From: Candidatus Methylomirabilis sp.
Lineage (GTDB): Bacteria > Methylomirabilota > Methylomirabilia > Methylomirabilales > Methylomirabilaceae
Reading direction: 5' to 3'
NCBI GenBank assembly: GCA_041498975.1
Contig: JBGQJI010000022.1
Location: forward strand, 1-26,052
DNA length: 26,052 bases
Shown here: positions 2,650-18,323 of the stretch, piece after piece
Layout of the letters: the number at the start of each line of letters is the position of its first letter
How positions within the stretch are numbered: position 1 is the first letter of the stretch
The notes under the pieces: model-generated
What the model was told of the DNA's origin: nothing
Databases searched by the model: none
What the model saw: only the letters and a program-made list of their open reading frames with translations
Program-made: the position numbers and the translations under genes

Positions 2650-3495
2650 CTAGCGCGCTTGGATCTTGCCCAGCGCCAGCTCGGCCGCTCTGGAGACATC
2701 CGGGCTCGGATCGCGAGTCGATAGCCCCCGCAAGTCCGGGGCCGCGGCCTGCGCCGTCGGCCCGAGCAAGCCAAGAGCCCATGCGGCGGTCTCCCGTTCG
2801 TTGGCGCTGCGGCTCCTGAGCGCCTGGACCAGTGCGGGGACCGCGTCTGCGCCGAGCCGCTTGAGCGCATCGCCCGCTGCCTGCCGCACGCTGGCCGCCG
2901 GGTCCTGCAGGGCGTCGAGCAACTCGGGTACCGCGGCCTGCGGCACCGACTGCATCCGACCGATGGTCTCGGCCGCTGCCTTCCTGATCCTGGCATCGGG
3001 GTCCTTGAGGCCCTCGATCAGCCTGGGCAACTCCGCCCGTTCATTCCGGGCAACGGGATATGCCTCTTCATTCGGCAGGTCTTCGTCCGGGACTTCCACT
3101 GCTATCCCCTCCCGGGCAAGGGTCAGGGCTGCGGCTTGCCGCACGCTGGGGTAGGGGTCCTTCAGCGCCTGTTGCAGCGCGGGCACCGCCCGCATGATGG
3201 TCTTCTTGATCCGGCGAAGGGCGATGGCCGCCTCCTCCCGCACACGAGGGCTGGGGTCCTCGAGCAGCACCCTGGCGAGCGCCGGCACGCTGGGCCCGGG
3301 TTGAAACTTGGTCATGGCGAGGACCGCCTTGAGTCGATCGGCTTCGGTCGGGTCGTTGAGATGCGCCACCCACTCTTCGAACTTCCGCCCCTCGTACATC
3401 CGTTCGGCCCGGCACAGTCCTGGGACTGCCAGGCAGGCCAGACCAACAAGCAGAAACTGCAGGAAGAAGCCGTAATGCACTCGCCTGCGACTCAT
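2650..3495 (-). CDS. HEAT-repeat (PBS lyase-like) protein with signal peptide
   Basis: Repeats LKDPYPSVRQAAALTL, LKDPDARIRKAAAETIG and LQDPAASVRQAAGDAL. Start MSRRRVHYGFFLQFLLVGLACLA follows a GGGAGG RBS. Confidence 0.85.
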   Translation of the reverse strand: MSRRRVHYGFFLQFLLVGLACLAVPGLCRAERMYEGRKFEEWVAHLNDPTEADRLKAVLAMTKFQPGPSVPALARVLLEDPSPRVREEAAIALRRIKKTIMRAVPALQQALKDPYPSVRQAAALTLAREGIAVEVPDEDLPNEEAYPVARNERAELPRLIEGLKDPDARIRKAAAETIGRMQSVPQAAVPELLDALQDPAASVRQAAGDALKRLGADAVPALVQALRSRSANERETAAWALGLLGPTAQAAAPDLRGLSTRDPSPDVSRAAELALGKIQAR

Positions 3496-3756
3496 GATTC
3501 TTTTCCCTCCCGACGATACGAAGCCATGCTCAACGCTCCCGCCCAGAGATCCCGGCCACAACGAGCTCAGCTTCGACCGAACCCTGCTCCTGCGGGATCC
3601 TTGCGCAACGCTCGCCCCACAGTGGGCCAAAAAACAAAATGACACTGCGCCCCCGCGCCGCGGGTTCCCACAATGCCACTATGTGCGGTGTCCACGACAC
3701 CGTCGCATTCCTTTTTGGAGTGTGTGCAGCCGCTAGGGTACGTCCATTGTGTGCCG

Positions 3757-3878: not shown

Positions 3879-5876
3879 TCATGCACGGACCACCTGTGTC
3901 GCTGGGCGCAACGGCTCCTCTGCAGCGGCCGGGGCTTCCTTCGGCATCTGGAACGTCAGGAGCCTGGCGGAGCTCAAGACCACGGCCAGTGAGCTGCCCT
4001 GGTGGATCAAGGCGGCGCCCACCGGTTTGATGTAGTGTCTCATCCCGAAGTAGATGGAGATGAACGCGATCGCGAGCGAGAACCAGGTGTTCAGCCTGAT
4101 GACATCCTTGGTCACCCGGGAGAGCTTGATCACATCCACCAGCTTCTTGAAGTCCTGCGAGAGAAGCACGACGTCCGCCACCTCGATCGCCACGGCGTTC
4201 TCCACTGCCGCCATCGCGATCCCGAGGTCGGCCTTCGCGAGGGACGGGGCGTCGTTGATGCCGTCGCCCACCATGGCCACCACGTACCCCTCCTGCTGGA
4301 GCTGCTTGACCCGCTCGACCTTCGCCTCGGGCGACATCTCGGCGTGGACCTGCTGCTCGGCGATCCCGACAGCCCGCGCGATGGTCTTCGCGATCGGGCG
4401 GATATCCCCGGTCATGATCTCGATCCGCCGGATGCCGAGCTTCTCCAGTTCCTGAATCGTCTCTTTCACGTCCGCCTTGATGGTGTCGAAGAAGACGACG
4501 GCTCCCAGCACGCGATCGTCGCGCGCCACCAGCGAGACGGTTTGCCCTTCCGCCCCCTTGGCGGCGATCACCTTTTTGGCGTCCTCCGGGACAGCGATCC
4601 CGTACTCAGCGAGCAGGCGTTCGTTGCCCACCAGGAGCCGCTGTCCCTGAGACTCGGCGGTGACGCCCAACCCGAGCTTGAGCTTGAAGCCGGTCGGGTC
4701 CGGGACCCGCATCCCGCGCCGCTCGGCCTCCCGGCAGATCGCCTTCCCCAGCGGGTGCTCCGAGAACTTCTCGGCGAGGGCAGCAGTAGCAAGGACATCC
4801 TCCTTGTTTTTTCCGCCGAAGGGGATCACCTCCTCGACCCGGTGGACCCCGAAGGTGATCGTGCCGGTTTTGTCCAGGACGATGCAGTCCACCCTTGCAG
4901 CCCGCTCCATGACCGCGCCGCCCTTGATCAGCATCCCCCGCTTGGCAGCGTTCCCCAGGGCCGCCACGAATGCGGTAGGGGTGGCCAGGATGAGGGCGCA
5001 GGGGCACGCCAGCACGAGGACCGTGATGGCCACCTTCACCTCGATGAAGAAGTAGGCCCACAGGGCCAGGAGGAGTGCCGCAGGCATGAGCCACTGGGTG
5101 ATCTCGTCGATGTACCGCGTGACCTCCGCCTTGCTGGCGATCGCCTGCCGCACCAGCCTGACGATCGCCGCGACCATCGTCTGCTCGCCCTTCTTCGTGA
5201 CCTCGACCTCCAGCACCCCGAGCTGGTTGATCGTCCCGGCAAACACCATCTCCCCCGTCCGCTTCACGACCGGCATGAACTCCCCCGTGAGCGGGGCCTG
5301 GTCCACCGAGCTCTCCCCTACCCGGATGATCCCGTCCACGGGGATCTTCTCCCCCGGCTTCACAAGGACCCGCTCACCCACGGCCACAGCCCTCGCCTCG
5401 ACAACGACCTCCCCCTCCGCCCTCCGGACCCGCGCGGTATCCGGGGTGATCGTGACGAGACTCAGGATGGACTTCCGAGAGCGGTCAATGATCAGCTCCT
5501 CGAGGACGATCCCCACCTCGATGATGAGGGTAATGGTGGCGGCCGCGAACCACATCGCCTGGGAGACCGCCGCCGACACCGCGATCGAGACCAGGACCTC
5601 CACGCTCAGGAGCCTGCCCGACTTGATCGCCCGCGCGGCCTGGATAAAGAGAGGGGGAGCCCCGATAAACAGGGCGAATGGCGTCAGGTCGATCTGCTTC
5701 GGGACATCGAACCAGTTCGCGACGAGGATGAGCGCTTGGACGAGGAGGAAGGCGACCATGACGCGCCTGTCCTCCAGGCTGAGCCCCGTTTCGGCGATCC
5801 GATGGGTCTCCCAGCTCTCGTCTTCGATGATCCCTTCGTGGTGGCCGTGGTAATGTTCTTGAGGTGCGTTTGCCAT
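3879..5876 (-). CDS. Heavy-metal translocating P1B-type ATPase
   Basis: Motifs TGE, CPC, DKTGT, SEHPL, TGD and GDGINDAP. His-rich N-terminus (EHYHGHHE), no CxxC HMA domain. Start at ATG 5876 (AAGGGG RBS); GTG 5891 is an alternative. Confidence 0.95.
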   Translation of the reverse strand: MANAPQEHYHGHHEGIIEDESWETHRIAETGLSLEDRRVMVAFLLVQALILVANWFDVPKQIDLTPFALFIGAPPLFIQAARAIKSGRLLSVEVLVSIAVSAAVSQAMWFAAATITLIIEVGIVLEELIIDRSRKSILSLVTITPDTARVRRAEGEVVVEARAVAVGERVLVKPGEKIPVDGIIRVGESSVDQAPLTGEFMPVVKRTGEMVFAGTINQLGVLEVEVTKKGEQTMVAAIVRLVRQAIASKAEVTRYIDEITQWLMPAALLLALWAYFFIEVKVAITVLVLACPCALILATPTAFVAALGNAAKRGMLIKGGAVMERAARVDCIVLDKTGTITFGVHRVEEVIPFGGKNKEDVLATAALAEKFSEHPLGKAICREAERRGMRVPDPTGFKLKLGLGVTAESQGQRLLVGNERLLAEYGIAVPEDAKKVIAAKGAEGQTVSLVARDDRVLGAVVFFDTIKADVKETIQELEKLGIRRIEIMTGDIRPIAKTIARAVGIAEQQVHAEMSPEAKVERVKQLQQEGYVVAMVGDGINDAPSLAKADLGIAMAAVENAVAIEVADVVLLSQDFKKLVDVIKLSRVTKDVIRLNTWFSLAIAFISIYFGMRHYIKPVGAALIHQGSSLAVVLSSARLLTFQMPKEAPAAAEEPLRPATQVVRA

Positions 5877-5896
5877 GATCGTCCCCTTCACTAACT

Positions 5897-6415
5897 CTAG
5901 CTAGACTCGAGCTTCACAAGAGGCCTGACAACAGCGACGACGAGGGAGAACAGCGAGAGATAGTAGATCGCCGAGATAATGATCCCCGGGAAGTGAACGT
6001 CCCAGTAGTAGTCGGCCTGGAGCGGATATTCGGTCAGGGTCGAGCGAAGGTCGTCGAGGGCCTGATTATATTCCACGGCGGTGATCTTTTTCTCGGGGTT
6101 CCCGCTGAGGAACTCCTTCGACAGCATGTCGGCTCGATCCTTTGTGCGCTCGAGCGACTTATTGATGAGGCTCATGTCGTTGGCGGGCGATTTGAAGATC
6201 AGGGCGGCGTAGCCATGAGTAAACCCCCAACGCTTCATGCCATCTACGGCATTGCCGAGGTAGCCCGCCATGTCCTCGGCGTGGGAGGACACCGCCGCCC
6301 TTATCACCCAGTCGTAGGTGTCGTACCAGATCCGGTAGTTAATGTAGTACCACACGCCGTAGTTGAGGGCGAACACGGCAAGGCTGATCCATACCATCTT
6401 CGGGACGCGTCGCAT
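5897..6415 (-). CDS. Hypothetical membrane protein (N- and C-terminal TM helices), paralog of 6524..7120
   Basis: Hydrophobic ends and shared motif DW.IRA..S.HA.D...Y...A..GM..W....GYAALI.KSP.NDM. Confidence 0.85.
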   Translation of the reverse strand: MRRVPKMVWISLAVFALNYGVWYYINYRIWYDTYDWVIRAAVSSHAEDMAGYLGNAVDGMKRWGFTHGYAALIFKSPANDMSLINKSLERTKDRADMLSKEFLSGNPEKKITAVEYNQALDDLRSTLTEYPLQADYYWDVHFPGIIISAIYYLSLFSLVVAVVRPLVKLESS

Positions 6416-6523
6416 CTCTTTTCACCCCTTTGAATTGGTTGCCTTCCTGTTGAACCGCTTCTGTTCAAGTCCACTCCGACCGCCCTCCGCTGACGGTCTC
6501 GGCCGTCGTGAGCCGGCGACAAC

Positions 6524-7120
6524 CTAGCCATACCAAAACGCCTTGAGCAGCCCGATGAAGAACGGGGCGATGAAGGCCAGGTCCACCCACGTGACCTCCT
6601 TCACCAGAGGGCGAATGATTCCGTACCCGAAGAGGATCAGGCCGGCATAGAAGACGACCTCGAACGGCAGCCCGATCCTGATCAGCCAGAGGTAGTGCGC
6701 CGGGGCCTTCAACGGAAGGGTGGAGTACAGAAGCCGGATATCCTTGAGGGTCTGGCCGTACTCGTGGTCGCTCTGACGGAAGGGAGAGCCCGGGGAATCG
6801 TACTTTTCCGCAATCGCCTGAAGACGCTCGTAAGTGCGGTGCATCCCCTTATACATGAGCCCCATGTCGTTGCGCGGGGACTTCCAGATGAGCGCGGCAT
6901 ATCCGGAATTGACTTCCCAATTCTGCATTCCCTGCAGCGCATGCTCGATATACTTCGCAGCGTCGCCCGCGTGCCCGGAGAGCTCCGCCCGGACGATCCA
7001 GTCCGCGGTGTCCCGGTAGAGGTAGTAGTTGGTCATGAACTCGGCGCTCCAGGCCATCAGGGCGATGTTCATCCCCAAGATGCTGATAAACGGAATCTTA
7101 AGCAGATTGACGACTTGCAT
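6524..7120 (-). CDS. Hypothetical membrane protein, paralog of 5897..6415
   Basis: GGAGGGGAG RBS, the same motif, and one extra C-terminal hydrophobic segment. Confidence 0.85.
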   Translation of the reverse strand: MQVVNLLKIPFISILGMNIALMAWSAEFMTNYYLYRDTADWIVRAELSGHAGDAAKYIEHALQGMQNWEVNSGYAALIWKSPRNDMGLMYKGMHRTYERLQAIAEKYDSPGSPFRQSDHEYGQTLKDIRLLYSTLPLKAPAHYLWLIRIGLPFEVVFYAGLILFGYGIIRPLVKEVTWVDLAFIAPFFIGLLKAFWYG

Positions 7121-7196
7121 CTCCCCTCCAAACTTTATGTAAGCGAGACGATTGACGGAGACTGGGCCGGTCGATTCGTCACGAAACGCGGCATTT

Positions 7197-7226
7197 CGTA
7201 TACCAGACTCTCGGAGCGTCTGTCAA
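7197..7226 (-). promoter_or_regulatory. Putative sigma70 promoter of the paralog-paralog-ATPase operon
   Basis: Minus strand TTGACA-18 nt-TATACG with a TG extended -10. Confidence 0.55.
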
Positions 7227-7355
7227 GGGAATTCGGGCTTGTTGGGCTCGTCATTTAAATATTGTAAACCGGCATGGGTCACACCTCTCTAGACACCGCC
7301 GCCAATGGCCGAGTCACTGACCGGGCTGCAGACGTGTGAGCGCTGGAGATTGAGT

Positions 7356-7384
7356 TTGCATTGCGCGGGTGGCGAGTGTATTCT
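7356..7384 (+). promoter_or_regulatory. Putative sigma70 promoter of the ZIP gene
   Basis: TTGCAT-17 nt-TATTCT, about 70 nt upstream of ATG 7454. Confidence 0.45.
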
Positions 7385-7453
7385 CGCAAGGATCTTTCCG
7401 GGTAAGATTGCCATCGCGACTCCCCTAGTGTCTCGACAGGAGCGACACCTCCG

Positions 7454-8182
7454 ATGGAAGCCCTCATTGTTTCCTTCAGCACCTTCATCTCCACCATGCT
7501 GGGTGGCCTCTTTGGCATTCGCCACCGAGATAGGCTGCATTTAATATTGAGTTTCACAGCGGGGGTCTTAATTGCTATCCCGTTCTTCGAGATTATCCCA
7601 GAAATTTTCTCCATCGCGACGGAGCACAAATTTGATGTCACGCCCGGGCTGATTGCGATCGTCATTGGATTCTTCGCCATTCACATCTTAGAACGGTCAG
7701 CGGTCATCCATCATGGGTTTCACGAAACCGAGTACGCGGAGCATAAGCATCCGCTCGTCGGCCTGATCGGGGCGTCGGGGTTGGTCTTCCACAGCTTCCT
7801 CGATGGGGTTGGGATAGGTCTCGCCTTTCACGTGAGCCGCCATGTCGGCTTCCTTGTCGCCGTGGCAGTAATCGCCCACGACTTTTCCGATGGTTTGAAC
7901 ACGGTAAGCTACATGCTGCTCCATAAGAATACACTCGGAAGGGCTCGGATGCTGCTCTTGGCGGATGCCACCACCCCGATCTTCGGGGCGGCCTCAACAT
8001 ATTTTTTCACCATCCCGGATCAGGTACTAGTCTTGTACCTCGGATTCTTCGCAGGCTTTCTGCTGTACATAGGGGCGAGCGATTTGCTGCCTGAGGCCCA
8101 TAGCGAGCACAGTTCATTCGCGATGGTTGGCCTAACCCTGTTGGGCGCTCTGTTCATTTTTGTCGTCACCAGGTTCACCTGA
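7454..8182 (+). CDS. ZIP (ZupT-like) divalent metal transporter
   Basis: About 8 TM segments, TM4/5 signatures HSFLDGVGIG and AHDFSDGLN, a His-rich loop HHGFHETEYAEHKH, and LLPEAH. Confidence 0.92.
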   Translation: MEALIVSFSTFISTMLGGLFGIRHRDRLHLILSFTAGVLIAIPFFEIIPEIFSIATEHKFDVTPGLIAIVIGFFAIHILERSAVIHHGFHETEYAEHKHPLVGLIGASGLVFHSFLDGVGIGLAFHVSRHVGFLVAVAVIAHDFSDGLNTVSYMLLHKNTLGRARMLLLADATTPIFGAASTYFFTIPDQVLVLYLGFFAGFLLYIGASDLLPEAHSEHSSFAMVGLTLLGALFIFVVTRFT

Positions 8183-8329
8183 TCCGGCCAGCAAGCAAAC
8201 ACCCGACATGTCAGGGCGACATCCCTGTTGGGCTCCACGCAAAAATGCTGCTGCTCGGCGCGTGAACCAGATGAGGACACAACCTGCAAGACCGTCGTGA
8301 CTCCAGCTCGCGCTGCAGCCTCGCCTCAC

Positions 8330-8788
8330 TCACCTTCGTTTCGCCGCCTTCATCCTTTTGACCGCCGGTGGCTTCACGGTCAAGACCGGACAGGGGGAGC
8401 GGCGCACCACCCGCTCGGCCACGCTGCCGAGCAACGCATGCGCGAGTCCGGTCCGCCCATGGGTCCCCATGACGATGAGATCGATCCGTTCCTTTTTTGC
8501 GAGCGTGGTGATCTCGATGTCCTCTACACCAACCCTCACCACGGGGTGCAACCTCACCTCGTGCTCTTTACTTGTCTTGAGCTGCTCTCTGAGGCTGGTC
8601 TCGGCATGCTTGACCATGAGGTCGATCAGTTGCCGGACGTTGTATGGACGCATCTCCGGAAAGGAGTGGACGACATGCACGAGATACAGGTCCGCGCCGA
8701 ACTTGCGGGCAATGCCCAATCCGTACTGAAACGCGGATTTGGCATTGTCAGAGAAATCGGTCGGAAACAGAATCCGCCTGATTTGCAC
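8330..8788 (-). CDS. Universal stress protein (UspA family)
   Basis: ILFPTDFS...DLIVMGTHGRTGL...LLGSVAERVVRRSPCPVLTV. GTG start at 8788 follows an AGGAGG RBS. Confidence 0.95.
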   Translation of the reverse strand: MQIRRILFPTDFSDNAKSAFQYGLGIARKFGADLYLVHVVHSFPEMRPYNVRQLIDLMVKHAETSLREQLKTSKEHEVRLHPVVRVGVEDIEITTLAKKERIDLIVMGTHGRTGLAHALLGSVAERVVRRSPCPVLTVKPPAVKRMKAAKRR

Positions 8789-8965
8789 CCGGCCCTCCTG
8801 CCTCCATCGCTCAATCAAGTTCCGCGTCTGACCCTTATGCCCGACCAGTGTGTCTTGGAGGACCTCAATCTACAGGAGCAGACCGACCAGAGAGAAACCC
8901 CAAGACCTGGGGTGCCAGGCTCATGATCACCCTGAGTCAAAGCACCGTTTTTCGCGTGGTCCGTC

Positions 8966-9700
8966 TCATCGCAGATCGTCCCACCGATGACGGGTTAGGT
9001 CCCAGACCTCGATCCTCGTGACCGGATGGATTTCCCACGCGCTCCCCTGCACGTCTCCGACATCCTGGACATGCTCGAAATCATGTAGGAGCCAGCCTGA
9101 GAACCTCACCCTCGTCTGACGATCACAGAGGTCCAAGAACGCACGATAGGACCAGCCGGTCTTTGGGGATTGGAAGGCCCGCGTCACCTCGGTCACGATC
9201 TGCGCTCCACGGTTCTCATCAGGGACACACCGAGGTTGCTGATGTTCCCGCAGATAGGCATTGATGTCGCCCGCGCTCGAAGGACGGACCCCGGCGATGT
9301 ACCCCTCCACGCTCACGGCTCGTTCGGTATAAGCTCGGACCGTGGTCCAATCGGCTTGCCCGTATTCCTCCGGGAGGTCGGGGAGGGCGTAGAACTCCGC
9401 AAACGTCATTGGCGTGTAGCGCTTCGGGATTGCCACCCGGGCCTTCTGGTACCTGAGGTAATAAGTCTGAAAGGGATGCAGGTGGTTACCCTGCCAGCCA
9501 TTCACAAGGCGCACCGCCGCGACCCCGGAGGCCTCGATCAGGCTTGCCGGATCCGCCTCAGTCATCAGTGTCCCAACAGGACTGGTGCGGTTCCCGCCCG
9601 GAGTGAAACAAATCTCGACGGAGCCGGTCCTGGCGCTGGAGATACCAGAGCTGCAGGCGATGACCAAGAACGCGAGCGACATTTCGACCGGGCGGAACAT
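8966..9700 (-). CDS. Hypothetical protein, possible OB-fold, C-terminal WEIHP motif
   Basis: VSVEGYI...GDIN...VTEVT...VRFSGWLLHDFEH...WEIHPVTRIEV. The true start is uncertain. Confidence 0.6.
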   Translation of the reverse strand: MFRPVEMSLAFLVIACSSGISSARTGSVEICFTPGGNRTSPVGTLMTEADPASLIEASGVAAVRLVNGWQGNHLHPFQTYYLRYQKARVAIPKRYTPMTFAEFYALPDLPEEYGQADWTTVRAYTERAVSVEGYIAGVRPSSAGDINAYLREHQQPRCVPDENRGAQIVTEVTRAFQSPKTGWSYRAFLDLCDRQTRVRFSGWLLHDFEHVQDVGDVQGSAWEIHPVTRIEVWDLTRHRWDDLR

Positions 9701-9908: not shown

Positions 9909-11243
9909 TCAAGGAAATAGCCCTACTAACACAATCTCAAGATTAAGGGCGAGCACCGAGAGCAAGATTGCAGCCAAGGTCACAGGTATGCCGATCTTTA
10001 CGTAGAGCGAGTAGGAAATATGCACGCCCCTATCCCTCAGGATTCTGAACCATAGAAGCGCCGCCAGAGACCCGATAGGAAGCATCTTCGGTCCCAGATC
10101 CCCGCCTATGAGCGCCGAGAATACCAACATCTTCCTTACAAATCTCGTCTCCCCCAGCAATGACCCGAAAGACATATCCTTGATACTGAGGGCCATCGCA
10201 TAGGCGGTTGGGTGGTTGTTCATGATAGCCGAGCATGTCGCCGCGATGAACCCGCCGGCCATGGTGAGCTTGAAGATACTGGATCCCGACAGGTAGCCGA
10301 TCAACCCTCCTATCACATTCGTCAAGCCCGCATTCCGTAGTCCTGTCACAACGATGAATATACCGACGACGAAGGCTATGACATCCCAACCGACGGCCTT
10401 GATCACTTGGATGTTATCAGAGCCCTCCATCAACCCTGAGAGAATGAGCAGAGCCATCGCCCCGATGAAGGCCGCAGCCCAGATCGGCACACCGATAAGG
10501 TGTTCCAGGAAAAACGCGAGTAGTGTGAGACCCAGCACTATTCCCGAGAGAACCATGTACCGGCGGTTTTTCAGAGAATCATCGAGAGGAAGGTGCTCAT
10601 ACCTTTGGGGGAGAGCGTTCTTGAAGAACATCCTGAGGCCAACATAGCTGGTTAGCACGCTCACGAGGGCCGGGAATATCATCCACGTCGCGTATTCATG
10701 GAACCCGATGCCAAAGAGACTTGCAACGATGATGTTGATGGGATTGCTGATCACAAATGCCCCAACGAGGTTGGCGATGTAGAGCACAGCAAAGTAGTAA
10801 GGGATTTTGCTAGATAGATCCCAGGATTCTCCCTTGACCTCTTCCACCAGTTTATACACCAGGGGTGTGAAGATCAGGACGGCGGCATCGTTTGTGAAGA
10901 TGGCCCCTGTCACAGTGCCGGCAATGAATATATAGGTAAATAACGCTCTCGCGTCTCCTTTAGCGACCCTTGCGATCTGAAGCGCTAACAGCGCAAAGAG
11001 TCCCGCCTGCTCCGCGATAATGGTCAGAATCATCAGGCTGATTATCGCAATGACCGGATAGAGAAGGACACTCAGGGCTTGGTAGGCAGCATGAACCGGG
11101 ACGGCTCCCGTGATGATACTTAACAGCGCCCCTAGTATTGCAGCAGTGGCATGGCCAATCCTGATCCGCCCGAGCCTTGGCTTTACCAACGCAAGGCCGA
11201 CGGTTAAGACAAGAATAGGCAATGCGGCTTGATTAGCGTGCAT
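9909..11243 (-). CDS. arsB: ArsB-family (ArsB/NhaD ion-transporter superfamily) permease
   Basis: FTNDAAVLIFTP, SNPINII, MNNHPT and GGDLGPKMLPIGSLAALLW match ArsB signatures, with about 12 TM segments. Start moved to ATG 11243 because the longer ORF overlaps the Ubl gene. Substrate not established. Confidence 0.8.
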   Translation of the reverse strand: MHANQAALPILVLTVGLALVKPRLGRIRIGHATAAILGALLSIITGAVPVHAAYQALSVLLYPVIAIISLMILTIIAEQAGLFALLALQIARVAKGDARALFTYIFIAGTVTGAIFTNDAAVLIFTPLVYKLVEEVKGESWDLSSKIPYYFAVLYIANLVGAFVISNPINIIVASLFGIGFHEYATWMIFPALVSVLTSYVGLRMFFKNALPQRYEHLPLDDSLKNRRYMVLSGIVLGLTLLAFFLEHLIGVPIWAAAFIGAMALLILSGLMEGSDNIQVIKAVGWDVIAFVVGIFIVVTGLRNAGLTNVIGGLIGYLSGSSIFKLTMAGGFIAATCSAIMNNHPTAYAMALSIKDMSFGSLLGETRFVRKMLVFSALIGGDLGPKMLPIGSLAALLWFRILRDRGVHISYSLYVKIGIPVTLAAILLSVLALNLEIVLVGLFP

Positions 11244-11310
11244 GGACCCAGAATGGACGCATAAACCGGCCTCATGCCGGGAGCCTCTGGATGCGGGGCC
11301 AAACGGTGTA

Positions 11311-11583
11311 TCAGCCCTTTTCGCCGGCGAGCCGGACAAACTCCAGTTGCTGCCCGGCCAAGAGGATGGTGCTCTCTTCCACTTCGCGGCCATCCACGAT
11401 GGCCACGGCTTGCGGGCTGATATTGAGGGCCTGGCGCAGCGCCTGGCGGACGTCGGCCACCGTCCGGCCGGCGAGGTTCGCCTCCAGGGCATGGACGCCA
11501 TACAGCACGCGCACCTGTTGTTGGGCCTTGGGCTGGCCCGCCAGCTTCGCTCTGGAGATCCCCTTGAGCTGACCCTCGCTCAT
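11311..11583 (-). CDS. Ubiquitin-like (beta-grasp) protein ending LEFVRLAGEKG
   Basis: 90 aa with a beta-grasp-like pattern (TVADVRQAL helix, AIVDG, TILLAGQQLEFV strand) and a C-terminal GxKG. ATGA overlap with the E1 stop. Confidence 0.85.
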   Translation of the reverse strand: MSEGQLKGISRAKLAGQPKAQQQVRVLYGVHALEANLAGRTVADVRQALRQALNISPQAVAIVDGREVEESTILLAGQQLEFVRLAGEKG

Positions 11584-12293
11584 CGATCGTTCTCTCCGCT
11601 GCGCGGATTCCGGGCGACAGGCTGAGCTCGTCCCTCCACGATATCCAGGTACACCTCGCCATAGCCCAATCGCCCGGAGCGCCAGGCGAAGAAGGCGTTC
11701 AGCATCGCCGAGGCGATGCTCAGATTCATGAAGAGGAGTTGAGGCGCGGCGACGGCAGCCAGCTCCTCGCAGGACATCTCCGCCGGAGACTTGTCCTTCG
11801 GGTCGGCGATCTCCGGGTGAAAGCGCGTCAGCGGCAGGGTGACGTCGCGGCCGTCCCGGCGGACGTAGACCTGGACGTTGCCGTCCGTGAAGTCGTTGCC
11901 GCCGGAGATCAGCACCACGTCTGACAGCGCTTCACAGTGGCGACTGACTATCTGCCGGGTGGCGTGGTTGTCCACCGCAAGGAAGACCAGATCGCCGGGT
12001 GTCACCACATGCGGCAAGTTCTCCGCAGTGACGAACTCCGGGATGGCGCGAAACGAGAGATCGGGGAAGCTCCTGGCCAGTTCGGTCGCCTTTACCTTGG
12101 CCTTGTTTCCAACGGTCTCGAAGCTCTGTCGGGCGGCGTTCCTGCTCTCAAACGTATCGCCGTCAACCAGGGTGATCCGGACCTCTTCTCCGGTAAGCTG
12201 CCGCTCTGCCTGGAGGTATCGGGTCAAGAACGGCGCCAAGGCACAGCCGATCCCGCCGACGCCGATCAGTTTGATTTCGATCTTCTCCGCCAT
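11580..12293 (-). CDS. ThiF/E1-like activating enzyme
   Basis: IGVGGIG, VDGDTFESRNAARQ, NKA, DLVFLAVDNHATR, and a candidate catalytic Cys in SCEELA..PQLLFMN. Confidence 0.93.
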   Translation of the reverse strand: MAEKIEIKLIGVGGIGCALAPFLTRYLQAERQLTGEEVRITLVDGDTFESRNAARQSFETVGNKAKVKATELARSFPDLSFRAIPEFVTAENLPHVVTPGDLVFLAVDNHATRQIVSRHCEALSDVVLISGGNDFTDGNVQVYVRRDGRDVTLPLTRFHPEIADPKDKSPAEMSCEELAAVAAPQLLFMNLSIASAMLNAFFAWRSGRLGYGEVYLDIVEGRAQPVARNPRSGENDR

Positions 12294-12308
12294 GGCGCGA
12301 CGACCACC

Positions 12309-12980
12309 TCAGACGGACGACGGCCGCCCTTCGGCATCGCTGTCCCGCGGCACAGCCTCGAGGTCCACGACCTGCAGCGTGTGCTCGCGAACCTCGACCG
12401 CGTGGATGGCCGGCGAGGCGTCGTCGAAGACATCCGACGGCTTGAGGGTGAACCGGCGGCCGTCCACGACGAGGGAACAGGCCACGCTCACCTCCCCATC
12501 GAGGTTGCCGATGGTGACGTGAAGGCCGTCGTCATGCCGCTCATCCTCGTCGTCCAACTCGGAATGGAAGGCATCGGCCGCGGCGTGGCTATGGATCGTG
12601 CCCACCCGGACCCATCCCGTGGGGGTCGGGCCGATTTCGTACCGGCAGTGCCCGCCCGCCACTTGCTGCTTCGGGATCGTCAGTTCGTACCTGTTCTCCG
12701 CCTGGGTGAAGTAGAGAAGGGCCACCGCCTCTGCGCGATGGGCCCGGAAGACCTCCCGGAAGAAGGCCACGATCTCCGCCAGGATGGCGGCTGGGACGGG
12801 CGGAAGCTGCAGCCAGGCGGCTTCCTGCTCGGACATGAGCCAGGTCAGGCCGCGAACCTTCGTCCTGGCATGGAAGAGGAGATTCCGCTTCACCTGGAAC
12901 AAGCCGTCCCGCGTGACCAGATAGTAAATCGGGTCGTCCGGCTCTTCGAATCCATCCTCTTTCAAATAGACGGGAAACAT
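12309..12980 (-). CDS. JAB/MPN+ (Mov34) metallopeptidase
   Basis: Glu in RAEAVALL plus HSHAAADAFHSELD, an exact HxH-x7-S-xx-D JAMM motif. The start MFPVYLK overlaps the upstream stop (TGATG). Confidence 0.9.
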   Translation of the reverse strand: MFPVYLKEDGFEEPDDPIYYLVTRDGLFQVKRNLLFHARTKVRGLTWLMSEQEAAWLQLPPVPAAILAEIVAFFREVFRAHRAEAVALLYFTQAENRYELTIPKQQVAGGHCRYEIGPTPTGWVRVGTIHSHAAADAFHSELDDEDERHDDGLHVTIGNLDGEVSVACSLVVDGRRFTLKPSDVFDDASPAIHAVEVREHTLQVVDLEAVPRDSDAEGRPSSV

Positions 12981-13783
12981 CAGGTCACGTCGTTCAGGCG
13001 ATACAGGAGGTCGGCCAAGTCCGACGCATCCTCCAGGGGGCGTGCGGCGCCTCGCCAGTCGAGCAAGTGCTCGCCGGCCTTGCCAAGGCTGAGCCCTGTC
13101 TCCTCCCACTGAATCGCCAAAGGAAAAAGCGGGTCCGCCGCGGTGGCGATCTCCCAACCGTCGAGCGTCCCGATGCGGTCGTCCAGCGCGGCGGCGCGGC
13201 GGAAGCAGTTGCTTTCGATGTCAAGGTTGAACCCGGCGCTCCAGAAGAACTCGATCGCCGTCTGGGCCTGCCCGGCCACCGTCAGGTCATCGAAGGGGGG
13301 CCGGCCCCGAAGACAGACCCGGCACTTCGCCAAGGGGCTCTCGCTCGCCGAGATGTTCCAGAGGTTGGGCATATAGAGCTCGTCCTCTTCGGAGACCAAC
13401 GGGGCGTTCCGGTAGTAGAGGCGCATCTCCTCAAAAGAGCCGCGGTGAAACAGGAGCAGGTAGACCGCGTAGGGAAAGGCCAGATTGCTGTGGCGATAGC
13501 TGCCGGGCTCGTCCAGGGCCTTCTCGCTCCAGCCGACCCACCGCACCTGGGGGGGATGCTCGACGGCGATGACGAGCGCCGGGCCCCGGACGATGGCCCA
13601 TCGGGCGCCGGGCGGCAGCAAAGGGATCTGTTGAAGGAAGCGCTGGGGAGTCGAGGCGGCGATCTCCAGGAGGAAGTCGCGGAGACTCACCTGCCGATCA
13701 GTGGCAACGGCCCCATCCGGCGTCGATCGGGAAAGGCGGACGGACCTCCCCTTGATCTCGATGGTCTCCTCCGGCTCTGGCAT
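12980..13783 (-). CDS. Prokaryotic E2-like protein (family D / PRTRC protein B-like)
   Basis: LLPP...AFPY.V...LYMPNLWNI...CRVCL...FFWSAGFN resembles the Prok-E2_D pattern (LY..P..N...VC...FF.S.F). It lies in an operon with Ubl, E1 and JAB genes. Confidence 0.72.
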   Translation of the reverse strand: MPEPEETIEIKGRSVRLSRSTPDGAVATDRQVSLRDFLLEIAASTPQRFLQQIPLLPPGARWAIVRGPALVIAVEHPPQVRWVGWSEKALDEPGSYRHSNLAFPYAVYLLLFHRGSFEEMRLYYRNAPLVSEEDELYMPNLWNISASESPLAKCRVCLRGRPPFDDLTVAGQAQTAIEFFWSAGFNLDIESNCFRRAAALDDRIGTLDGWEIATAADPLFPLAIQWEETGLSLGKAGEHLLDWRGAARPLEDASDLADLLYRLNDVT

Positions 13784-13786
13784 GCG

Positions 13787-15562
13787 TTACGACGCTCCGC
13801 CGCCCTCACGGGATGCCCACGCTTCGACGAGAGCCTGCCGCCCCTCAGGCAGGAACTGCCGCGAGGAGCAGAGGGCAAGCGCCGCGCGCTCCTGGGCCTC
13901 GATCGAGAGCCGATCCTGGAATGGGATGAAGTCCTCCACCGCCCAGCGGTAATCCTCGAGGGCGATCGCGTTCGCCCCGCGCCATCGAGCCCGTCGATAG
14001 GCGCGGAGGGTGATCTCCTCGATGTCGGCCCCGGAGATCTGGCCGGGATGGCGCCGATCGCAGTGCTCGACGACCGACGAGAAGTCGCCGACCTCGCAGG
14101 CGAAGCCGTGCTTCCTCGGCATGACCTCGAAGATGCGGGCCTTGTCGGCCGCGTCAGGCATCAGGAGCGGAATCCGCTCGCTGCTCCGACCCGAGCGCTT
14201 TTCCGCCGCGTCCAGGCGATCCGGCCGGTTGCTGATCCGAATCCAGAGGACCTGTCCCTGGATCGCGGGGTCGCCGGTGAAGGCGAAGCGCATCTGTCTG
14301 ATCCGATTGCCCACGCCGGAGTCGCCGCTGTACTCGTCCCGCATCTGCTCGCTCTGGTCCGCCTCGTCCTCCAGCACCACCACCGGGGTCATCGAGCGCA
14401 AGGCCTGCAGGATGCGCCAGTAGTTCCGCTCCGATTGTCCGACCCACTTCTCCCGGGGATTGACGATCTTCACGAAATTGAAGCCGCACTCCTTGGCCAG
14501 GGCCTCCGCCAGGGCCGTCTTCCCTACGCCGGGCGGGCCCAGCAAAGTGATGCCTCGTGGCACCAGCTTATGGTCGCCGTCTTTGATGGCCTGGATGACG
14601 CGGCGCAGGTACGTCTTCACCGCCTCCATTCCGCCGATGGCATCCAAGCCCAGGGTGGGCTCCACCGCCTCGATCATGCCGTGCAGCTCCCGTTTGAGGA
14701 TCTCTCGCTTCCGGTCGGTGACCTCCGCATAGGTCAGCGGCACCTTGCGCCCGCCCACCTGACGGCACAGCGCCTTCAGGTGCAAGCGCGAGAGGCCGGC
14801 GGTGACATGGGCGAGCTGCTCGGGAGTCATCGTCATGGTGAACCCGTTCTCCGCCCGGAGGTGGTCGATATACTCAGCCCGCTCGGCCACGCTGGGGAGA
14901 GGCACCTCGATGGCCTCCACCCGCGAGGCCGGACCCCGGAGCTGCGCGTGCAGGTCGGCGAGGTTGCCGACGGTGAGGACGACGGCCACGCCGGAGCGCA
15001 ACATCTCGGGGTCCGCCGCCCAGCGGAGGAGGGTCACCAGATTGGTCCGATCGTCATCGCTCATCGACGACAGATCGGCATCGGGAACGATCGTCTCGGC
15101 GTAGCCGATCACAACCAGCGGCGCACATCCCTCCCTGACGCCGAAGCAACCGGATCGGACCGCTGTCTCGAGGAGCGCAAGGACCTTCGTCGGGTGAGTC
15201 GGCAGCTCGCGTTCCGGCGGGACGTCTTGGCCCAGCGCGGTAAGAGCCCGACGCTTTGCCGCCTCGGCCTCATTGGTGAGGCCGGTGACCTTCCGAAAGA
15301 GCGCCTCTGTGGCGGAATCGGAAAAACGCAGGCCGCGCGAGCGATCGTACACGATCATCCGCTCATCGCCTGCGAGCCAGCGTCCCAGAAAGGTCGGCAG
15401 CGAGACGAACTGATCGCCCAGGCGAACCTCGTCGGCAACGTTGAAGTGCAGAACGAAGACGGAGGTCATCCTGGCGTCGATCCGCTCTTTCAGATCGCGC
15501 GCCCAGCGCGGCAGTGCTAGTTGGCCTGTGACCTGCGGCTGATGTCGATATTCCTCTGCCAT
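13787..15562 (-). CDS. AAA+ ATPase with degenerate N-terminal and intact C-terminal AAA module
   Basis: DAIGGM, Walker A GPPGVGKT, pore loop KWVG, Walker B VVVLEDEAD, SRH SNRPDRLDAAEKRSGR. The N-terminal half has AAA-like strands (FVLHFNVAD, LVVIGYAET, IEVPLPS..ER) but no Walker A. Confidence 0.93.
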   Translation of the reverse strand: MAEEYRHQPQVTGQLALPRWARDLKERIDARMTSVFVLHFNVADEVRLGDQFVSLPTFLGRWLAGDERMIVYDRSRGLRFSDSATEALFRKVTGLTNEAEAAKRRALTALGQDVPPERELPTHPTKVLALLETAVRSGCFGVREGCAPLVVIGYAETIVPDADLSSMSDDDRTNLVTLLRWAADPEMLRSGVAVVLTVGNLADLHAQLRGPASRVEAIEVPLPSVAERAEYIDHLRAENGFTMTMTPEQLAHVTAGLSRLHLKALCRQVGGRKVPLTYAEVTDRKREILKRELHGMIEAVEPTLGLDAIGGMEAVKTYLRRVIQAIKDGDHKLVPRGITLLGPPGVGKTALAEALAKECGFNFVKIVNPREKWVGQSERNYWRILQALRSMTPVVVLEDEADQSEQMRDEYSGDSGVGNRIRQMRFAFTGDPAIQGQVLWIRISNRPDRLDAAEKRSGRSSERIPLLMPDAADKARIFEVMPRKHGFACEVGDFSSVVEHCDRRHPGQISGADIEEITLRAYRRARWRGANAIALEDYRWAVEDFIPFQDRLSIEAQERAALALCSSRQFLPEGRQALVEAWASREGGGAS

Positions 15563-15643: not shown

Positions 15644-15874
15644 CGTTCTTGTCCCCGCGGTTGTGCGCCCGACCGCCCCATGCCCTCCGACGACTCCAAT
15701 CAGTTGGGGCGGTCGTTGTCGGAACTGACACATGATGGAGGGGCCCGGATCAAGTCCGAGGCAAGCGCGGCGAGTGCGTCCTCCGCATCATGCGCTTCCT
15801 GCGAACACTCTGCTTGGAAACGGTTCGGGTCTCTGCTACCATGGCACTGAACAACCCGCGACGGAGAAGATGCG

Positions 15875-16114
15875 ATGCCGACTGCCGAGGAGCTCAAAGA
15901 CGAGGACAGGCGCCTGAGACAGCTCCAGTTCGTGGTTGGTCTGACGATGAGCGTGATCAGCCAGACCAAGCTCTCGCTGGAAGAGGCGTCTCGGATGGTG
16001 GCAGCCACGAGGCAATGGGCGCTAAGGCTCTTTCCCGGGAAGGAGCTGGCCTTCGATCTGATCTATCAGCCCCGCTTCCGCAGGCTCCTCACCGAACGAT
16101 TCCACCTCCATTGA
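15875..16114 (+). CDS. Small hypothetical protein (79 aa, helical)
   Basis: GGAGAAG upstream, protein-like composition (LFPGKELAFDLIYQPRFRRLL), co-oriented with nfo. Confidence 0.75.
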   Translation: MPTAEELKDEDRRLRQLQFVVGLTMSVISQTKLSLEEASRMVAATRQWALRLFPGKELAFDLIYQPRFRRLLTERFHLH

Positions 16115-16176
16115 GATCAGTGCCCACTCCTACGAACAGACCGATCAAGGCCCAGCAACAGCCACCCTCAGTAGAA

Positions 16177-17046
16177 GTGGACTTGCTTCTTGGCGCCCAC
16201 ATGTCGATCGCAGGAGGAGTTGATCTGGCGGCGCTGAGAGGCCAGAATGTCGGCTGTCGAGCCATCCAGCTCTTCACCAAGAGCAGCAATCAGTGGCGGG
16301 CCAGGCCGCTGCCGCCCGAGGAGATCGAGCGCTATCGAGCTAACCTTCAGGCTGCCGGAATCGCCCATACTGTGGCCCACGATTCGTACCTGATCAATCT
16401 CGCCTCGACTGACCCTCCGGTATATCAGAGGTCGATGGCAGGCTTCCAGGAGGAGCTGGAGCGGGCGGAAGCGCTGGGCATTCCCTATCTGGTGACCCAT
16501 CCCGGGGCCCACATGGGGGCCGGCGAGGAGACAGGGTTACGTCAGGTGGCGAATAGCATCCGGGACCTTTTGAAGCGGACGAAAGGCTACCGCGCGCAGG
16601 TGGTTCTCGAGACCACCGCCGGCCAGGGGACCAGCTTGGGCCACCGCTTCGAGCAGATTACGGCCATCCTGGATCAAATCGGCCTCCCGGAGCGGACCGG
16701 GGTCTGCCTGGACACCTGCCACCTCTTCGCCGCCGGCTACGATATCAGGACACCCCAGGGATACGCCGACGTCCTTGGGGCATTCGACCGGATCGTGGGG
16801 ATCTCCCACCTGAAGGTCATACACCTCAACGACAGCAAAAAAGGGCTAGGGTCTCACGTGGACCGCCACGAACATATCGGCAAGGGGGCGATCGGCCTCG
16901 AGGCCTTCCGCTGCCTCGTGACCGACCCCCGTCTGCGGGGACTGCCGATGATCCTCGAGACCCCGAAAGATGGCGACTTCGTGCTGGCCGATCGCCGCAA
17001 TCTCGACACCCTGCTACGCCTGGTCCAAGAGGCGCATGCCGCCTGA
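16177..17046 (+). CDS. nfo: Endonuclease IV (AP endonuclease family 2)
   Basis: GAHMSIAGG, HDSYLINL, HPG, ETTAGQG, CLDTCH, HLNDSK, DRHEHIG and ETP. Start approximate (GTG 16177 or TTG 16183). Confidence 0.96.
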   Translation: MDLLLGAHMSIAGGVDLAALRGQNVGCRAIQLFTKSSNQWRARPLPPEEIERYRANLQAAGIAHTVAHDSYLINLASTDPPVYQRSMAGFQEELERAEALGIPYLVTHPGAHMGAGEETGLRQVANSIRDLLKRTKGYRAQVVLETTAGQGTSLGHRFEQITAILDQIGLPERTGVCLDTCHLFAAGYDIRTPQGYADVLGAFDRIVGISHLKVIHLNDSKKGLGSHVDRHEHIGKGAIGLEAFRCLVTDPRLRGLPMILETPKDGDFVLADRRNLDTLLRLVQEAHAA

Positions 17047-17689
17047 CGTCTCCGGGTTTGAGTTCGTCGACCAATCTCAGCCGCCGAGCGACCTTCCCAT
17101 CTTCCCGCTCCCGAATGTGGTCCTCTTCCCGAACATGGTCCTGCCACTCCACATCTTCGAGGAACGGTACAAGCGGATGATCCATGACTGTCTGCAGGCC
17201 GACCGGTACCTCGGGATCTTCCTGCTCAGAAAGGGATGGGAACAGGCCAACGACCCGCAGCCCTACGACGTTGGCGGGTTTGGTCAGATCACCCGCGCCG
17301 TCAAACTGCCGACCGGCAACTATGAAATCGTGGTTCGAGGCCTCGGAAGAGCTCGGGCCATCTCGTATACGCAGGAAATTCCATACAGGCGCGCGGTGGT
17401 TGAGCTTATTGAAAACGGGGGAGAAGATTCAGCGGAACTGCGAGCCCTAGCCGCTTCCATGGTGGAGCGGCTGAACAGGGTCCTGACTCTCCGGCCGGGC
17501 CTTGGCACAGAATTCCAGACCCACCTCAAACTGCTCGCCAGCCCGAGGGACCTCGGCTACGCGGTGGCCGCTCACTACCCGGACCTGACGGTCTATGATC
17601 GACAATCGATTCTGGAACTCAGAAGCGTCGAGGCGCAACTCCGTCAACTCAACCGCTTCCTGAACCGGGACCTCGCCCGGCTGAACTAA
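17036..17689 (+). CDS. Stand-alone Lon N-terminal (substrate-binding) domain protein
   Basis: LPIFPLPNVVLFPNMVLPLHIFEERYKRMI...PYRRA...RQSILE. No AAA or protease domain. The ATG overlaps the end of nfo. Confidence 0.9.
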   Translation: MPPDVSGFEFVDQSQPPSDLPIFPLPNVVLFPNMVLPLHIFEERYKRMIHDCLQADRYLGIFLLRKGWEQANDPQPYDVGGFGQITRAVKLPTGNYEIVVRGLGRARAISYTQEIPYRRAVVELIENGGEDSAELRALAASMVERLNRVLTLRPGLGTEFQTHLKLLASPRDLGYAVAAHYPDLTVYDRQSILELRSVEAQLRQLNRFLNRDLARLN

Positions 17690-17817: not shown

Positions 17818-18243
17818 CTAGTATAAAGTCGGACCCTGGGGCCGATCCCATCGCGCGGGGCGACGGCGCAGGGCCGTCGCCATCCCACCAGCCAAGAGCA
17901 ATCCAAGCAAGATCATCCCCCACTCGGACAGGGTGGGGATCGTCGGAGTTGGCCCCGCCACACTGCTTGCCAGAAAAATCTCGTAATTGCCGTCGCCGTT
18001 GCCGGGACTGCCCGGGGTAAGGTCGCGGTCAAACTGGAAGGCAATCCGGGTCCCGGCGGCGTTGACCGAGGAAGCGGGGAAGAGGTCCCTAACCCGGTCA
18101 GCGCCCCCGATGGTATTGGTCATCTGGGTTATCGTGAAAGGCTCCGCCTGAGCAAGGTGTGGCAACGTCCAGCCGAAAAAACACGCAAGGACGACTACAA
18201 GCGTGACTCCCGCCCGTCGATGTCTGCCTATCAACCGAGCCAT
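17818..18243 (-). CDS. IPTL-CTERM sorting-signal protein with a single TolB/PD40-like repeat
   Basis: Signal peptide, then SVNAAGTRIAFQFDRDL...GNYEIFLA, then IPTLSEWGMILLGLLLAGG...RRR. ATG 18243 follows AAGGGG. Confidence 0.75.
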   Translation of the reverse strand: MARLIGRHRRAGVTLVVVLACFFGWTLPHLAQAEPFTITQMTNTIGGADRVRDLFPASSVNAAGTRIAFQFDRDLTPGSPGNGDGNYEIFLASSVAGPTPTIPTLSEWGMILLGLLLAGGMATALRRRPARWDRPQGPTLY

Positions 18244-18274
18244 CACACCCCTTGTTTGACTATCCACCTCCGCT

Positions 18275-18323
18275 CCCCTCAACCTCCCCTTCTCCCCTCC
18301 GGGGAGAAGGTAGGGATGAGAGG
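18275..18323. repeat. Palindromic REP-like element or hairpin (possible terminator)
   Basis: CCCCTCAACCTCCCCTTCTCCCC-TCC-GGGGAGAAGGTAGGGATGAGAGG inverted repeat. Confidence 0.65.

Follow-up and report, generated by a model that had tools for sequence, protein, structure and literature searches.

PRTRC (class 6d) cassettes, which group genes for a ubiquitin-like modifier (Ubl), an E2-like protein, a JAB peptidase and a ThiF-type E1, have been known from sequence since 2006 (Iyer et al. 2006, PMC1779556, as far as drawn on here), and no function is given for them in the papers covered by our literature search. Here we analyze a 26,052-nucleotide stretch from Candidatus Methylomirabilis sp., a methane-oxidizing NC10 bacterium (GenBank assembly GCA_041498975.1, contig JBGQJI010000022.1, positions 1 to 26,052 of the forward strand; hereafter the window), which carries a five-gene operon encoding proteins of these four kinds behind a leading gene for an AAA+ ATPase. 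We tentatively favor, with confidence a little short of even, the reading that this operon is a chromosomal PRTRC-like (Iyer-class-6d) Ubl conjugation system functionally coupled to a Cdc48-style AAA+ unfoldase.

All five genes lie on the minus strand. The operon opens with the AAA+ ATPase gene (13787-15562, 591 amino acids (aa)), followed by the E2-like gene (12980-13783, 267 aa), the JAB/JAMM gene (12309-12980, 223 aa counted from its ATG), the E1 gene (11580-12293, 237 aa) and, last, the Ubl gene (11311-11583, 90 aa, ending in AGEKG directly before the stop codon). The junctions, in gene order a 3-nucleotide (nt) gap, a TGATG overlap, a 15-nt gap and an ATGA overlap, are exactly of the sizes claimed in an earlier annotation of this stretch made from the letters alone (the sequence-only reading), and the two overlaps would be consistent with translational coupling within the operon. 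The longest open reading frame (ORF) for the JAB opens at a TTG at 13157, inside the E2 gene, and we placed the start at the ATG at 12980 because all nine aligned homologues begin there with MFPVYLK. The sigma-70-like promoter candidate TTGACT-18-TAGGAT proposed in the same annotation is indeed present at 15643-15614 on the minus strand, as a consensus match only, agreeing at 9 of 12 consensus positions; two such sites occur between 10900 and 16000 where 0.5 is expected from shuffled sequences, which is weak evidence only for its being the operon promoter.

To compare these genes with PRTRC, we took seven regions around PRTRC-ThiF genes and one around a plain ThiF gene, and built profiles from the five in which proteins A, B and C are all annotated (L067, L069, L070, L073 and L074), leaving out two in which only ThiF was labeled (L071 and L072) and one that is not PRTRC (L068). 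These five reference cassettes run ParB-family gene, E, C (the Ubl), x/F, B (the E2), A (the JAB) and ThiF. The E gene is so annotated in three of them, with a hypothetical gene at that place in the other two, and the ParB-family gene stands upstream in all five, as a "PRTRC system ParB family protein" in four and as a "ParB/RepB/Spo0J family partition protein" in the Manganitrophus cassette. The window has the E2-JAB-E1 order (B-A-ThiF) of all five references. Profile comparisons with hhalign, in which all 12 mismatched control pairs reached a probability of at most 3.9, paired the E1 with PRTRC ThiF (probability 99.4, E 5.9e-22), the JAB with PRTRC-A (probability 96.8, E 2.8e-10), and the E2-like protein, through its alignment A2, with PRTRC-B (profile of five proteins, probability 96.0, E 4.5e-9, 187 columns, with the NL.NV...C motif aligned).

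The E1 scores 68.7 bits against PF00899 (ThiF; cut-off 28.1), and its best NCBIfam match is TIGR03736 PRTRC_ThiF, at 71.0 bits against a cut-off of 144.75 that it does not reach. It aligns to MoeB (1jw9) and ThiF (1zud) with the GxGGxG motif (GVGGIGC), D44, R55-Q56 and D108 conserved, carries a candidate thioester cysteine, C175, within SPAEMSCEEL that is invariant in 10 sequences, and, as in PRTRC, has no rhodanese domain in Pfam or NCBIfam scans. An E1 on a Butyrivibrio plasmid (L068, 4035-7714) scores 86 bits against the window's E1 family, above the PRTRC ThiFs; in its vicinity are a Rad52-family gene and a 558-aa protein that includes a JAB-like region. The JAB reaches 24.9 bits against PF14464, 0.1 under the gathering score of 25, and 37.3 bits against TIGR03735 PRTRC_A (cut-off 101.8); its sequence has no match in the PDB. 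Its metal site is complete (E84 and H130-x-H132-x7-S140-x2-D143) and invariant in 10 sequences, as are R32 and W47 of its N-terminal alpha+beta domain, matching the N-terminal domain with conserved Arg and Trp listed for class 6d JABs in row 6d of Table 1 of Iyer et al. 2006 (PMC1779556). The JAB closes, beyond a linker of variable sequence, with a tail of the form DSD-x-x-GRPS-[SA]-[VI] (12309-12350) that looks like a docking peptide; this tail is invariant across ten sequences of the NC10 locus type described below (type A) and missing from the JAB of one further locus (L007).

The E2-like protein is harder to place, having no direct Pfam or NCBIfam match even with Pfam at E 10, and not reaching the 25-bit gathering score of PF14460 (Prok-E2_D). 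Three transitive lines nevertheless point to a distant relative of PRTRC-B and Prok-E2_D. Searched against 1.84 billion proteins, its family profile recruits 1979 representatives (E 0.001 or better), and 10 of the 34 family members scanned match PF14460 at E 0.001 or better, 4 of them reaching 25 bits; the hhalign comparison above gives the second line; and 29 of its 30 named matches in the Atlas are clusters in which 11-30% of members carry Prok-E2_D. The candidate catalytic Cys157 (codon 13313-13315), with Asn143 upstream and, as in PRTRC-B, following an N-V motif, is invariant in 47/47 sequences of alignment A1 and 50/50 of A2, and aligns to the invariant Cys of PRTRC-B. A difference lies C-terminal to this cysteine, where class 6d E2s have an absolutely conserved His (again row 6d of Table 1 in PMC1779556) and four of the five PRTRC-B proteins carry FTH, whereas the window's E2 has Asn186 (N in 46/47 sequences of A1 and 40/50 of A2). 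The AlphaFold2 (AF2) model of the protein has a predicted local distance difference test score (pLDDT) of 89.2. In a Foldseek search of the PDB with the whole model, true E2s (Rad6, Cdc34, UBE2N and UbcH7) appear only at ranks 17-49 with probabilities of 0.14-0.30, and the UBC fold is supported only indirectly. The same model has six matches at E 0.001 or better to uncharacterized phage proteins in BFVD (best 5.6e-12), its best structural match being a 621-aa phage protein. We also observed the E2-like domain inside proteins of 430-790 aa (P0264-P0364), after about 200-450 residues without a Pfam match.

The Ubl likewise has no family match (chance level only in Pfam even at E 10, none in NCBIfam at E 0.01 or better). 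In its AF2 model (pLDDT 78.8), built from 27 sequences, some 22 disordered N-terminal residues precede a beta-grasp core of bb-a-b..b topology, and Foldseek matches the model in the PDB to MoaD, NEDD8, SAMP1 and ubiquitin at probability 1.00 with template-modeling (TM) scores of 0.5-0.68. The C-terminal LEFVR[L/Q]AGEKG does not vary among 27 sequences drawn from two phyla, the window's own copy ending LEFVRLAGEKG with G90 last, and the sole invariant lysine of the Ubl is K89, beside the terminal Gly; PRTRC-C proteins end similarly in G-x-K-G, one of the five with a 63-residue tail beyond. Among the 32 Ubl genes found, three are cut by contig ends. Six of the other 29, the window's included, stop directly after GEKG, and the remaining 23 run 1-34 non-conserved residues further, one of these tails leaving its contig. 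Because 23 of 29 carry such variable tails after an invariant GEKG, the sequences imply that a peptidase would have to expose the terminal Gly, which is the pattern of a processed, conjugated modifier.

Set against these likenesses, the window has no ParB, E or F gene, and its proteins match none of the NCBIfam models for PRTRC B, C, E and F (for the E2-like protein and the Ubl, none at E 0.01 or better). Its Ubl gene comes last rather than first, an AAA+ gene comes first, the setting is chromosomal where PRTRC cassettes lie on plasmids, and the E1 and JAB score far under the PRTRC model cut-offs. Judged by sequence, the operon is a sister family of PRTRC and not a member. The resemblance to PRTRC C, ThiF and B and to Prok-E2_D that had been drawn from the letters holds up in this form, for E1, JAB and E2 by hhalign and for E2 also by the family scans. 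The string "AAA" has 0 occurrences in Iyer et al. 2006 (PMC1779556). In a full-text literature search we found no paper that joins a PRTRC-like cassette to an AAA+ gene, an earlier mention in reviews being possible, and no report of a Ubl system in Methylomirabilis.

The ATPase at the head of the operon combines two AAA modules. Its C-terminal module (D2, about residues 300-530) is an active classical AAA domain, scoring 74.5 bits against PF00004 over residues 339-464, with its best PDB sequence matches to the D2 of VAT and p97 (residues 301-529, E 1.2e-43), and 32 sequences show little or no variation in the motifs GPPGVGKT, KWVGQSE (pore loop), DEAD, SNRPD and RSGRSSER, so that Walker A and B, pore loop and Arg fingers are all in place. 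The N-terminal part (D1*, about residues 1-290, 14693-15562 on the minus strand) lacks a P-loop, with VLHFNVADE at the Walker A position and YAE at the Walker B position, and is conserved over its whole length in NC10 and Desulfobaccales-type homologues. For this part, Pfam at E 10 returns only chance-level matches and the Atlas only unnamed clusters; a profile of the N-terminal 300 aa from eight regions (A6) matches AAA modules of VAT, AFG2 and p97 (E 1e-9, profile positions 124-266). We had considered these 300 residues as a novel Ubl receptor domain, an idea rejected when profile A6 showed a degenerate AAA module. The ATPase is thus a Cdc48-style tandem of an inactive D1 and a competent D2 motor with no N-domain. 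The sequence-only reading of a Cdc48-like ATPase stands as regards the module close to VAT/p97 D2, with the correction that the protein is not a single AAA domain behind an N-domain of no known kind. At 94.5 bits against a TIGR01243 CDC48 cut-off of 802.65, the protein scores far under the level of the Cdc48/p97/VAT subfamily, whose tandem AAA layout it nevertheless has. Near its C-terminus, the motif CSSRxFxP (residues 565-572, 13847-13870) is invariant, Cys included, in all 32 sequences, with no conserved motif beyond it. We also observed full-length D1*-D2 relatives of about 300 bits on Paenibacillaceae megaplasmids, in Brevibacillus (L075, 8971-10602) and Paenibacillus (L076, 8989-10611), where the neighbors are hypothetical genes, DUF262, a cytosine methyltransferase and nrnB.

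A functional analogy is with ubiquitin and SAMP systems and their Cdc48/p97 or proteasome lid (Rpn11 on the Rpt ring), which share with the window a Ubl, an E1, an E2 (in eukaryotes), a JAMM deconjugase and a two-module classical AAA. The window's ATPase differs from Cdc48/p97 in having no double-psi-barrel N-domain and an inactive D1, and no RING or HECT E3, 20S proteasome gene or HbYX tail was seen in the window's ORFs. The actinobacterial Pup-proteasome system likewise has a small tagging protein and an AAA+ unfoldase (Mpa/ARC) devoted to reading it; Pup differs in being disordered and in being ligated by PafA without E1/E2 chemistry, and genes for PafA, Dop and the proteasome are all absent from the window. 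Bil (BilABCD) and type II CBASS (Cap2/Cap3) also place a bacterial E1, E2, JAB and (in Bil) Ubl in one operon, and are described as carrying out isopeptide conjugation in the parts of PMC10557695 and PMC11601596 used here, but they belong to other E1 and E2 families, have no AAA+ partner and are sited in defense islands. The FtsH-ternary vWA-MoxR conflict systems, in the account of Kaur et al. 2020 (PMC7159879) on which we rely in part, encode a Ubl/E1/E2/JAB set together with AAA+ chaperones, and are distinguished by a eukaryote-like E1/E2/RING tri-ligase, a Ubl-E2 fusion, FtsH, MoxR, effector-associated domains and caspase-like effectors, none of which is in the window.

We then surveyed species-representative genomes with a 21-sequence E2 alignment (A3), which reaches E2s of about 37% identity or more, and mapped the genes at the resulting 66 loci by tblastn and family hidden Markov models (HMMs). 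Homologues of the E2-like protein, the AAA and the E1 come nearly all from Methylomirabilota (NC10) records, the nearest loci being Candidatus Methylomirabilis assemblies with E2 identities of 91-92%. The same five-gene order is complete in nine other loci (E2 identity 51-92%), and two more are cut by contig ends. Among the type A loci (L001-L013, all NC10), AAA stands directly upstream of E2 in 13/13. In nine of them the set of five genes is complete; contig ends truncate L003 and L005, and L008 stops within its JAB gene. A second group (type C) comprises 40 loci in Desulfobaccales and other Thermodesulfobacteriota-type assemblies, with E2s 37-45% identical to the window's. Three of these have too little upstream sequence to judge, and AAA lies upstream of E2 in 35 of the 37 evaluable loci at HMM-to-HMM gaps of 100-1757 nt. 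In 18 type C loci a Ubl gene is found on the opposite strand, 3-5 kb from the AAA-E2 pair. The Ubl strand also carries, in 18 loci that are not wholly the same 18, a conserved 249-aa protein without a Pfam match, which adjoins the Ubl where both lie inside the locus; in L032 (2616-3749, minus strand) its gene is directly upstream of the Ubl. In two loci with long gaps, inserts lie between AAA and E2, namely a fusion of an N6/N4 DNA methylase and an Mrr-like endonuclease and a DUF559 endonuclease-like gene (L048, 6270-7757; L030, 6580-7941).

A third group (type B, 13 NC10 loci) consists of extra E2 genes, and this ATPase is found at 0/8 of those with enough upstream sequence. Five of them (L015 at 4527-8813, L017, L018, L022 and L023) show an E2-Ubl-E2' arrangement, with E2s from two further paralogue clades and a Ubl whose last residues are QAGEKG, and lack E1, JAB and this ATPase in their vicinity, and L014, L016, L024 and L025 are further loci of the type. 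Type B neighbors include an alpha/beta hydrolase, sometimes a pair of MoxR-type AAA and vWA genes, a protein of about 450 aa of no known family and a TPR protein. Type A and type B loci occur together in four assemblies. A quick E2 tree gave support of 99 for clade A and 100 for clade C and also supported three B clades (B1-B3), the branching order among clades not being settled by it. At least five well-supported E2 clades exist, with up to three E2 and two Ubl genes in one assembly. A stray record was seen in L020, a 1856-base contig filed under an archaeal (Nitrososphaera) assembly, whose NC10-type E2 nests within NC10 clade B and whose label is likely a binning error. Across the two phyla, the conserved unit is the AAA-E2 pair, and not the AAA together with the four-gene cassette. 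The sequence-only reading had named a failure of the AAA linkage in other genomes as grounds for its refutation, and for the AAA-E2 pair the linkage is conserved there; in the 40 type C loci it does not extend to the four-gene cassette. NC10 genomes also hold the type B E2 loci without this ATPase, and members of the ATPase family occur without the cassette.

The reading that we favor draws first on the conserved residues, which make up what is by sequence a complete set: adenylation site, two relay cysteines, JAMM site, exposable Gly and competent D2 motor. The assignments of Ubl, E1, JAB, E2-like protein and classical AAA (with VAT/p97 D2 as closest solved relatives) and the intactness of the catalytic motifs, from the E1, the JAB, the E2 Cys and the Ubl Gly to the AAA Walker A and B, had already been proposed in the sequence-only reading and are borne out here. 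From homology and these residues, the JAB would expose the terminal Gly of the Ubl, a step needed in the homologues with a tail past GEKG; the E1 would adenylate Gly90 and load the Ubl onto Cys175; and the Ubl would be handed to Cys157 of the E2-like protein and end up on the lysines of its targets. A less well supported step is that the ATPase hexamer, with an inactive D1 ring and an active D2 ring bearing KWVG pore loops, would engage Ubl-marked proteins and unfold or extract them. Engagement might proceed via a docked E2, which may sit on the ATPase because genomes conserve the AAA-E2 pair, or via the JAB, docked by its DSD-x-x-GRPS tail. Rpn11 sits on the ATPase ring of the proteasome, and a docked JAB would resemble it; by this analogy, the JAB may strip and recycle the Ubl during unfolding.

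A number of observations weigh against this reading. The conjugation and tag-and-unfold steps are predictions from sequence, and no protease partner is evident. No recognizable Ubl-binding N-domain was found in the ATPase by profile, by Pfam at E 10 or in the Atlas. Neither the E2 sequence profile nor the whole E2 model, extra N-terminal strands included, has a PDB match (for the model, 0 at E 0.001 or better), and the hhalign comparison of the Ubl with PRTRC-C is not significant (probability 0.6). E1 and JAB were found within 8 kb at none of the 40 type C loci, with which Pfam scans of two loci agree. Two of the 37 evaluable type C loci (L039 and L056) have no AAA within 8 kb, and in L059, L063 and L064 the AAA gene is fragmented. 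Among NC10 loci, L007 has a pirin-like gene after AAA-E2-JAB and lacks an adjacent E1 or Ubl. On the Paenibacillaceae megaplasmids, the 9 kb to either side of the ATPase genes contain none of E1, E2, JAB and Ubl. Finally, because unrelated restriction-modification-like genes intervene between AAA and E2 in L048 and L030, the two loci examined, the pair is not always one transcription unit.

The same chemistry may instead serve conflict or defense against phages or plasmids, as in Bil and type II CBASS, with the Ubl placed on a foreign protein or an effector and the ATPase disassembling or inactivating the target, a possibility that we regard as real but doubtful. PRTRC cassettes, the nearest relatives that have a name, occur beside ParB on plasmids and conjugative elements; the E2-like fold and sequence family is common in phage records, with Atlas clusters mostly from Uroviricota and the six BFVD matches given above; and the restriction-modification-like inserts of L048 and L030 would fit such a role. 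Paralogous E2-Ubl loci with MoxR-vWA and TPR genes resemble the vWA-MoxR conflict systems as they appear in PMC7159879, and characterized bacterial E1/E2/JAB/Ubl systems are antiviral in the portion of PMC11601596 cited here. On the other side, tblastn with the E2 found no match among 50,697 records of phages and 72,556 of plasmids. PADLOC-DB v2.0.0, a 2023 library in which Bil and Bub models may be missing, returned no system match, its only hits being generic AAA ones (IetA, 40.9 bits) and weak Cap2-type E1 ones of 21 bits or less.

The surroundings of the operon bear on the same question. Among 23 flanking ORFs scanned with Pfam, 14 have a match, and none of these is ParB, an integrase, a transposase or another mobile-element or defense domain, in line with the absence of ParB and mobile genes noted earlier from the letters; nine have no match at all, one being an antisense ORF at 4002-5894. 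One flank carries an ArsB-type permease, a ZIP transporter and a P-type ATPase, and the other carries nfo, a LON-N-domain protein, an IF-2B/MtnA-like protein, FtsE, FtsX, an M23 peptidase, CtpA, TsaD and Def. The nfo-to-CtpA flank, upstream of the operon, is common to the window and two other Methylomirabilis-type loci (L004 and L006), and two more distant NC10 loci (L009 and L011) share another housekeeping flank, with beta-oxidation and polyhydroxybutyrate (PHB) genes, an SLT-LysM transglycosylase, patatin, CutA and HtrA. The setting thus appears chromosomal and vertically inherited, with partly syntenic housekeeping genes on its flanks, and because this context is stable it suggests a role in endogenous protein quality control or regulation rather than in a classical mobile defense island.

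Another account, which we think unlikely, keeps the conjugation chemistry and makes the ATPase not the reader of the tag but the partner or target of the E2: a scaffold, an E3-like presenter of substrates, or an effector switched by Ubl attachment, comparable to the priming of cGAS-like enzymes in CBASS. It would explain why AAA-E2 adjacency is kept across two phyla when AAA-E1/JAB adjacency is not, and would sit well with an ATPase that has no separate recognition domain, with the invariant Cys-containing CSSRxFxP near its C-terminus and with a JAB whose invariant C-terminal tail resembles a docking peptide. Nothing speaks directly against it, although the extra E2 paralogues have no adjacent ATPase of this family.

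We consider it highly improbable that the Ubl and E1 form a sulfur carrier system of the ThiS/MoaD-ThiF/MoeB type, making a thiocarboxylate for a cofactor or natural product with the other genes as accessories. MoeB, ThiF and Uba4 are the nearest solved relatives of the E1, the Ubl model is structurally closest to a mycobacterial MoaD, and E1 homologues are labeled molybdopterin or thiamine adenylyltransferase by the Joint Genome Institute (JGI). However, the operon has no rhodanese domain, sulfurtransferase or biosynthetic gene, its other genes encoding an unfoldase, a JAMM peptidase and an E2-like protein in which a Cys is invariant, and the Ubl ends in KG with variable C-terminal tails in its family, where known sulfur carriers end in GG. 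It is just as hard to believe that the ATPase gene is a mere neighbor with no functional link to the cassette, as the ATPase relatives without a cassette and the unrelated genes in the Desulfobaccales-type gap might be taken to mean and as two observations speak against, namely an adjacency kept in 13/13 and 35/37 loci across two phyla with E2s only 37-45% identical to the window's, and a gap of 3 nt in the window.

Several other features of the window were noted alongside the operon. A stand-alone LON substrate-binding (N-domain) protein gene (16970-17689, plus strand) overlaps the 3' end of the nfo ORF (15790-17046); we rejected it as a member of the system, as it lies on the opposite strand and adjoins the operon only in L006, L004 keeping nfo without a LON-N match and the flanks of L009 and L011 lacking it. 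The longest ORF of the ArsB-type permease (9909-11501, minus strand) overlaps the Ubl gene by about 190 nt, and because its Pfam match begins only at residue 95, translation probably starts at a Met inside the ORF near 11240, shortly past the Ubl stop codon. Long ORFs antisense to the operon were rejected as genes, the one of 817 aa (13067-15520, plus strand) being treated as an artefact of high GC (guanine and cytosine) content. The window also holds a HEAT-repeat protein (2650-3645), an IPTL-CTERM protein (17818-18282) and seven ORFs of 172-312 aa without a Pfam match (in 234-2499, 5897-7120 and 8228-9700), and no transfer RNA (tRNA) or Rfam family was found in it.

An AAA+ unfoldase joined to a PRTRC-like cassette has apparently not been described before for this gene family, bacterial Ubl systems with AAA+ chaperones being already known for another, the FtsH-ternary family (PMC7159879, in the part considered here). 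In the window, the same chemistry as in PRTRC is found in a stable chromosomal setting and joined to a protein-unfolding motor, so that five small, soluble-looking proteins make testable a concrete hypothesis, in which a bacterium couples Ubl tags to unfolding driven by ATP, with a possible evolutionary parallel to the coupling of ubiquitin with Cdc48 and the proteasome. The invariant EKG end offers a handle, as modified lysines should keep a single Gly after digestion with trypsin and a Lys-Gly remnant after GluC, and because of these predicted remnants, proteomes of Methylomirabilis enrichment cultures could be searched for targets. More speculatively, and with low confidence, Methylomirabilota and some Desulfobaccales may run a native chromosomal ubiquitin-Cdc48-like pathway, in which one E1 would serve several E2 paralogues, the Ubl would be read or installed at a two-ring AAA+ unfoldase, and a JAMM peptidase would recycle it. 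If true, such a pathway would parallel, in bacteria, the tag-and-unfold proteostasis of eukaryotes, and would provide a first function for the long-unexplained PRTRC family.

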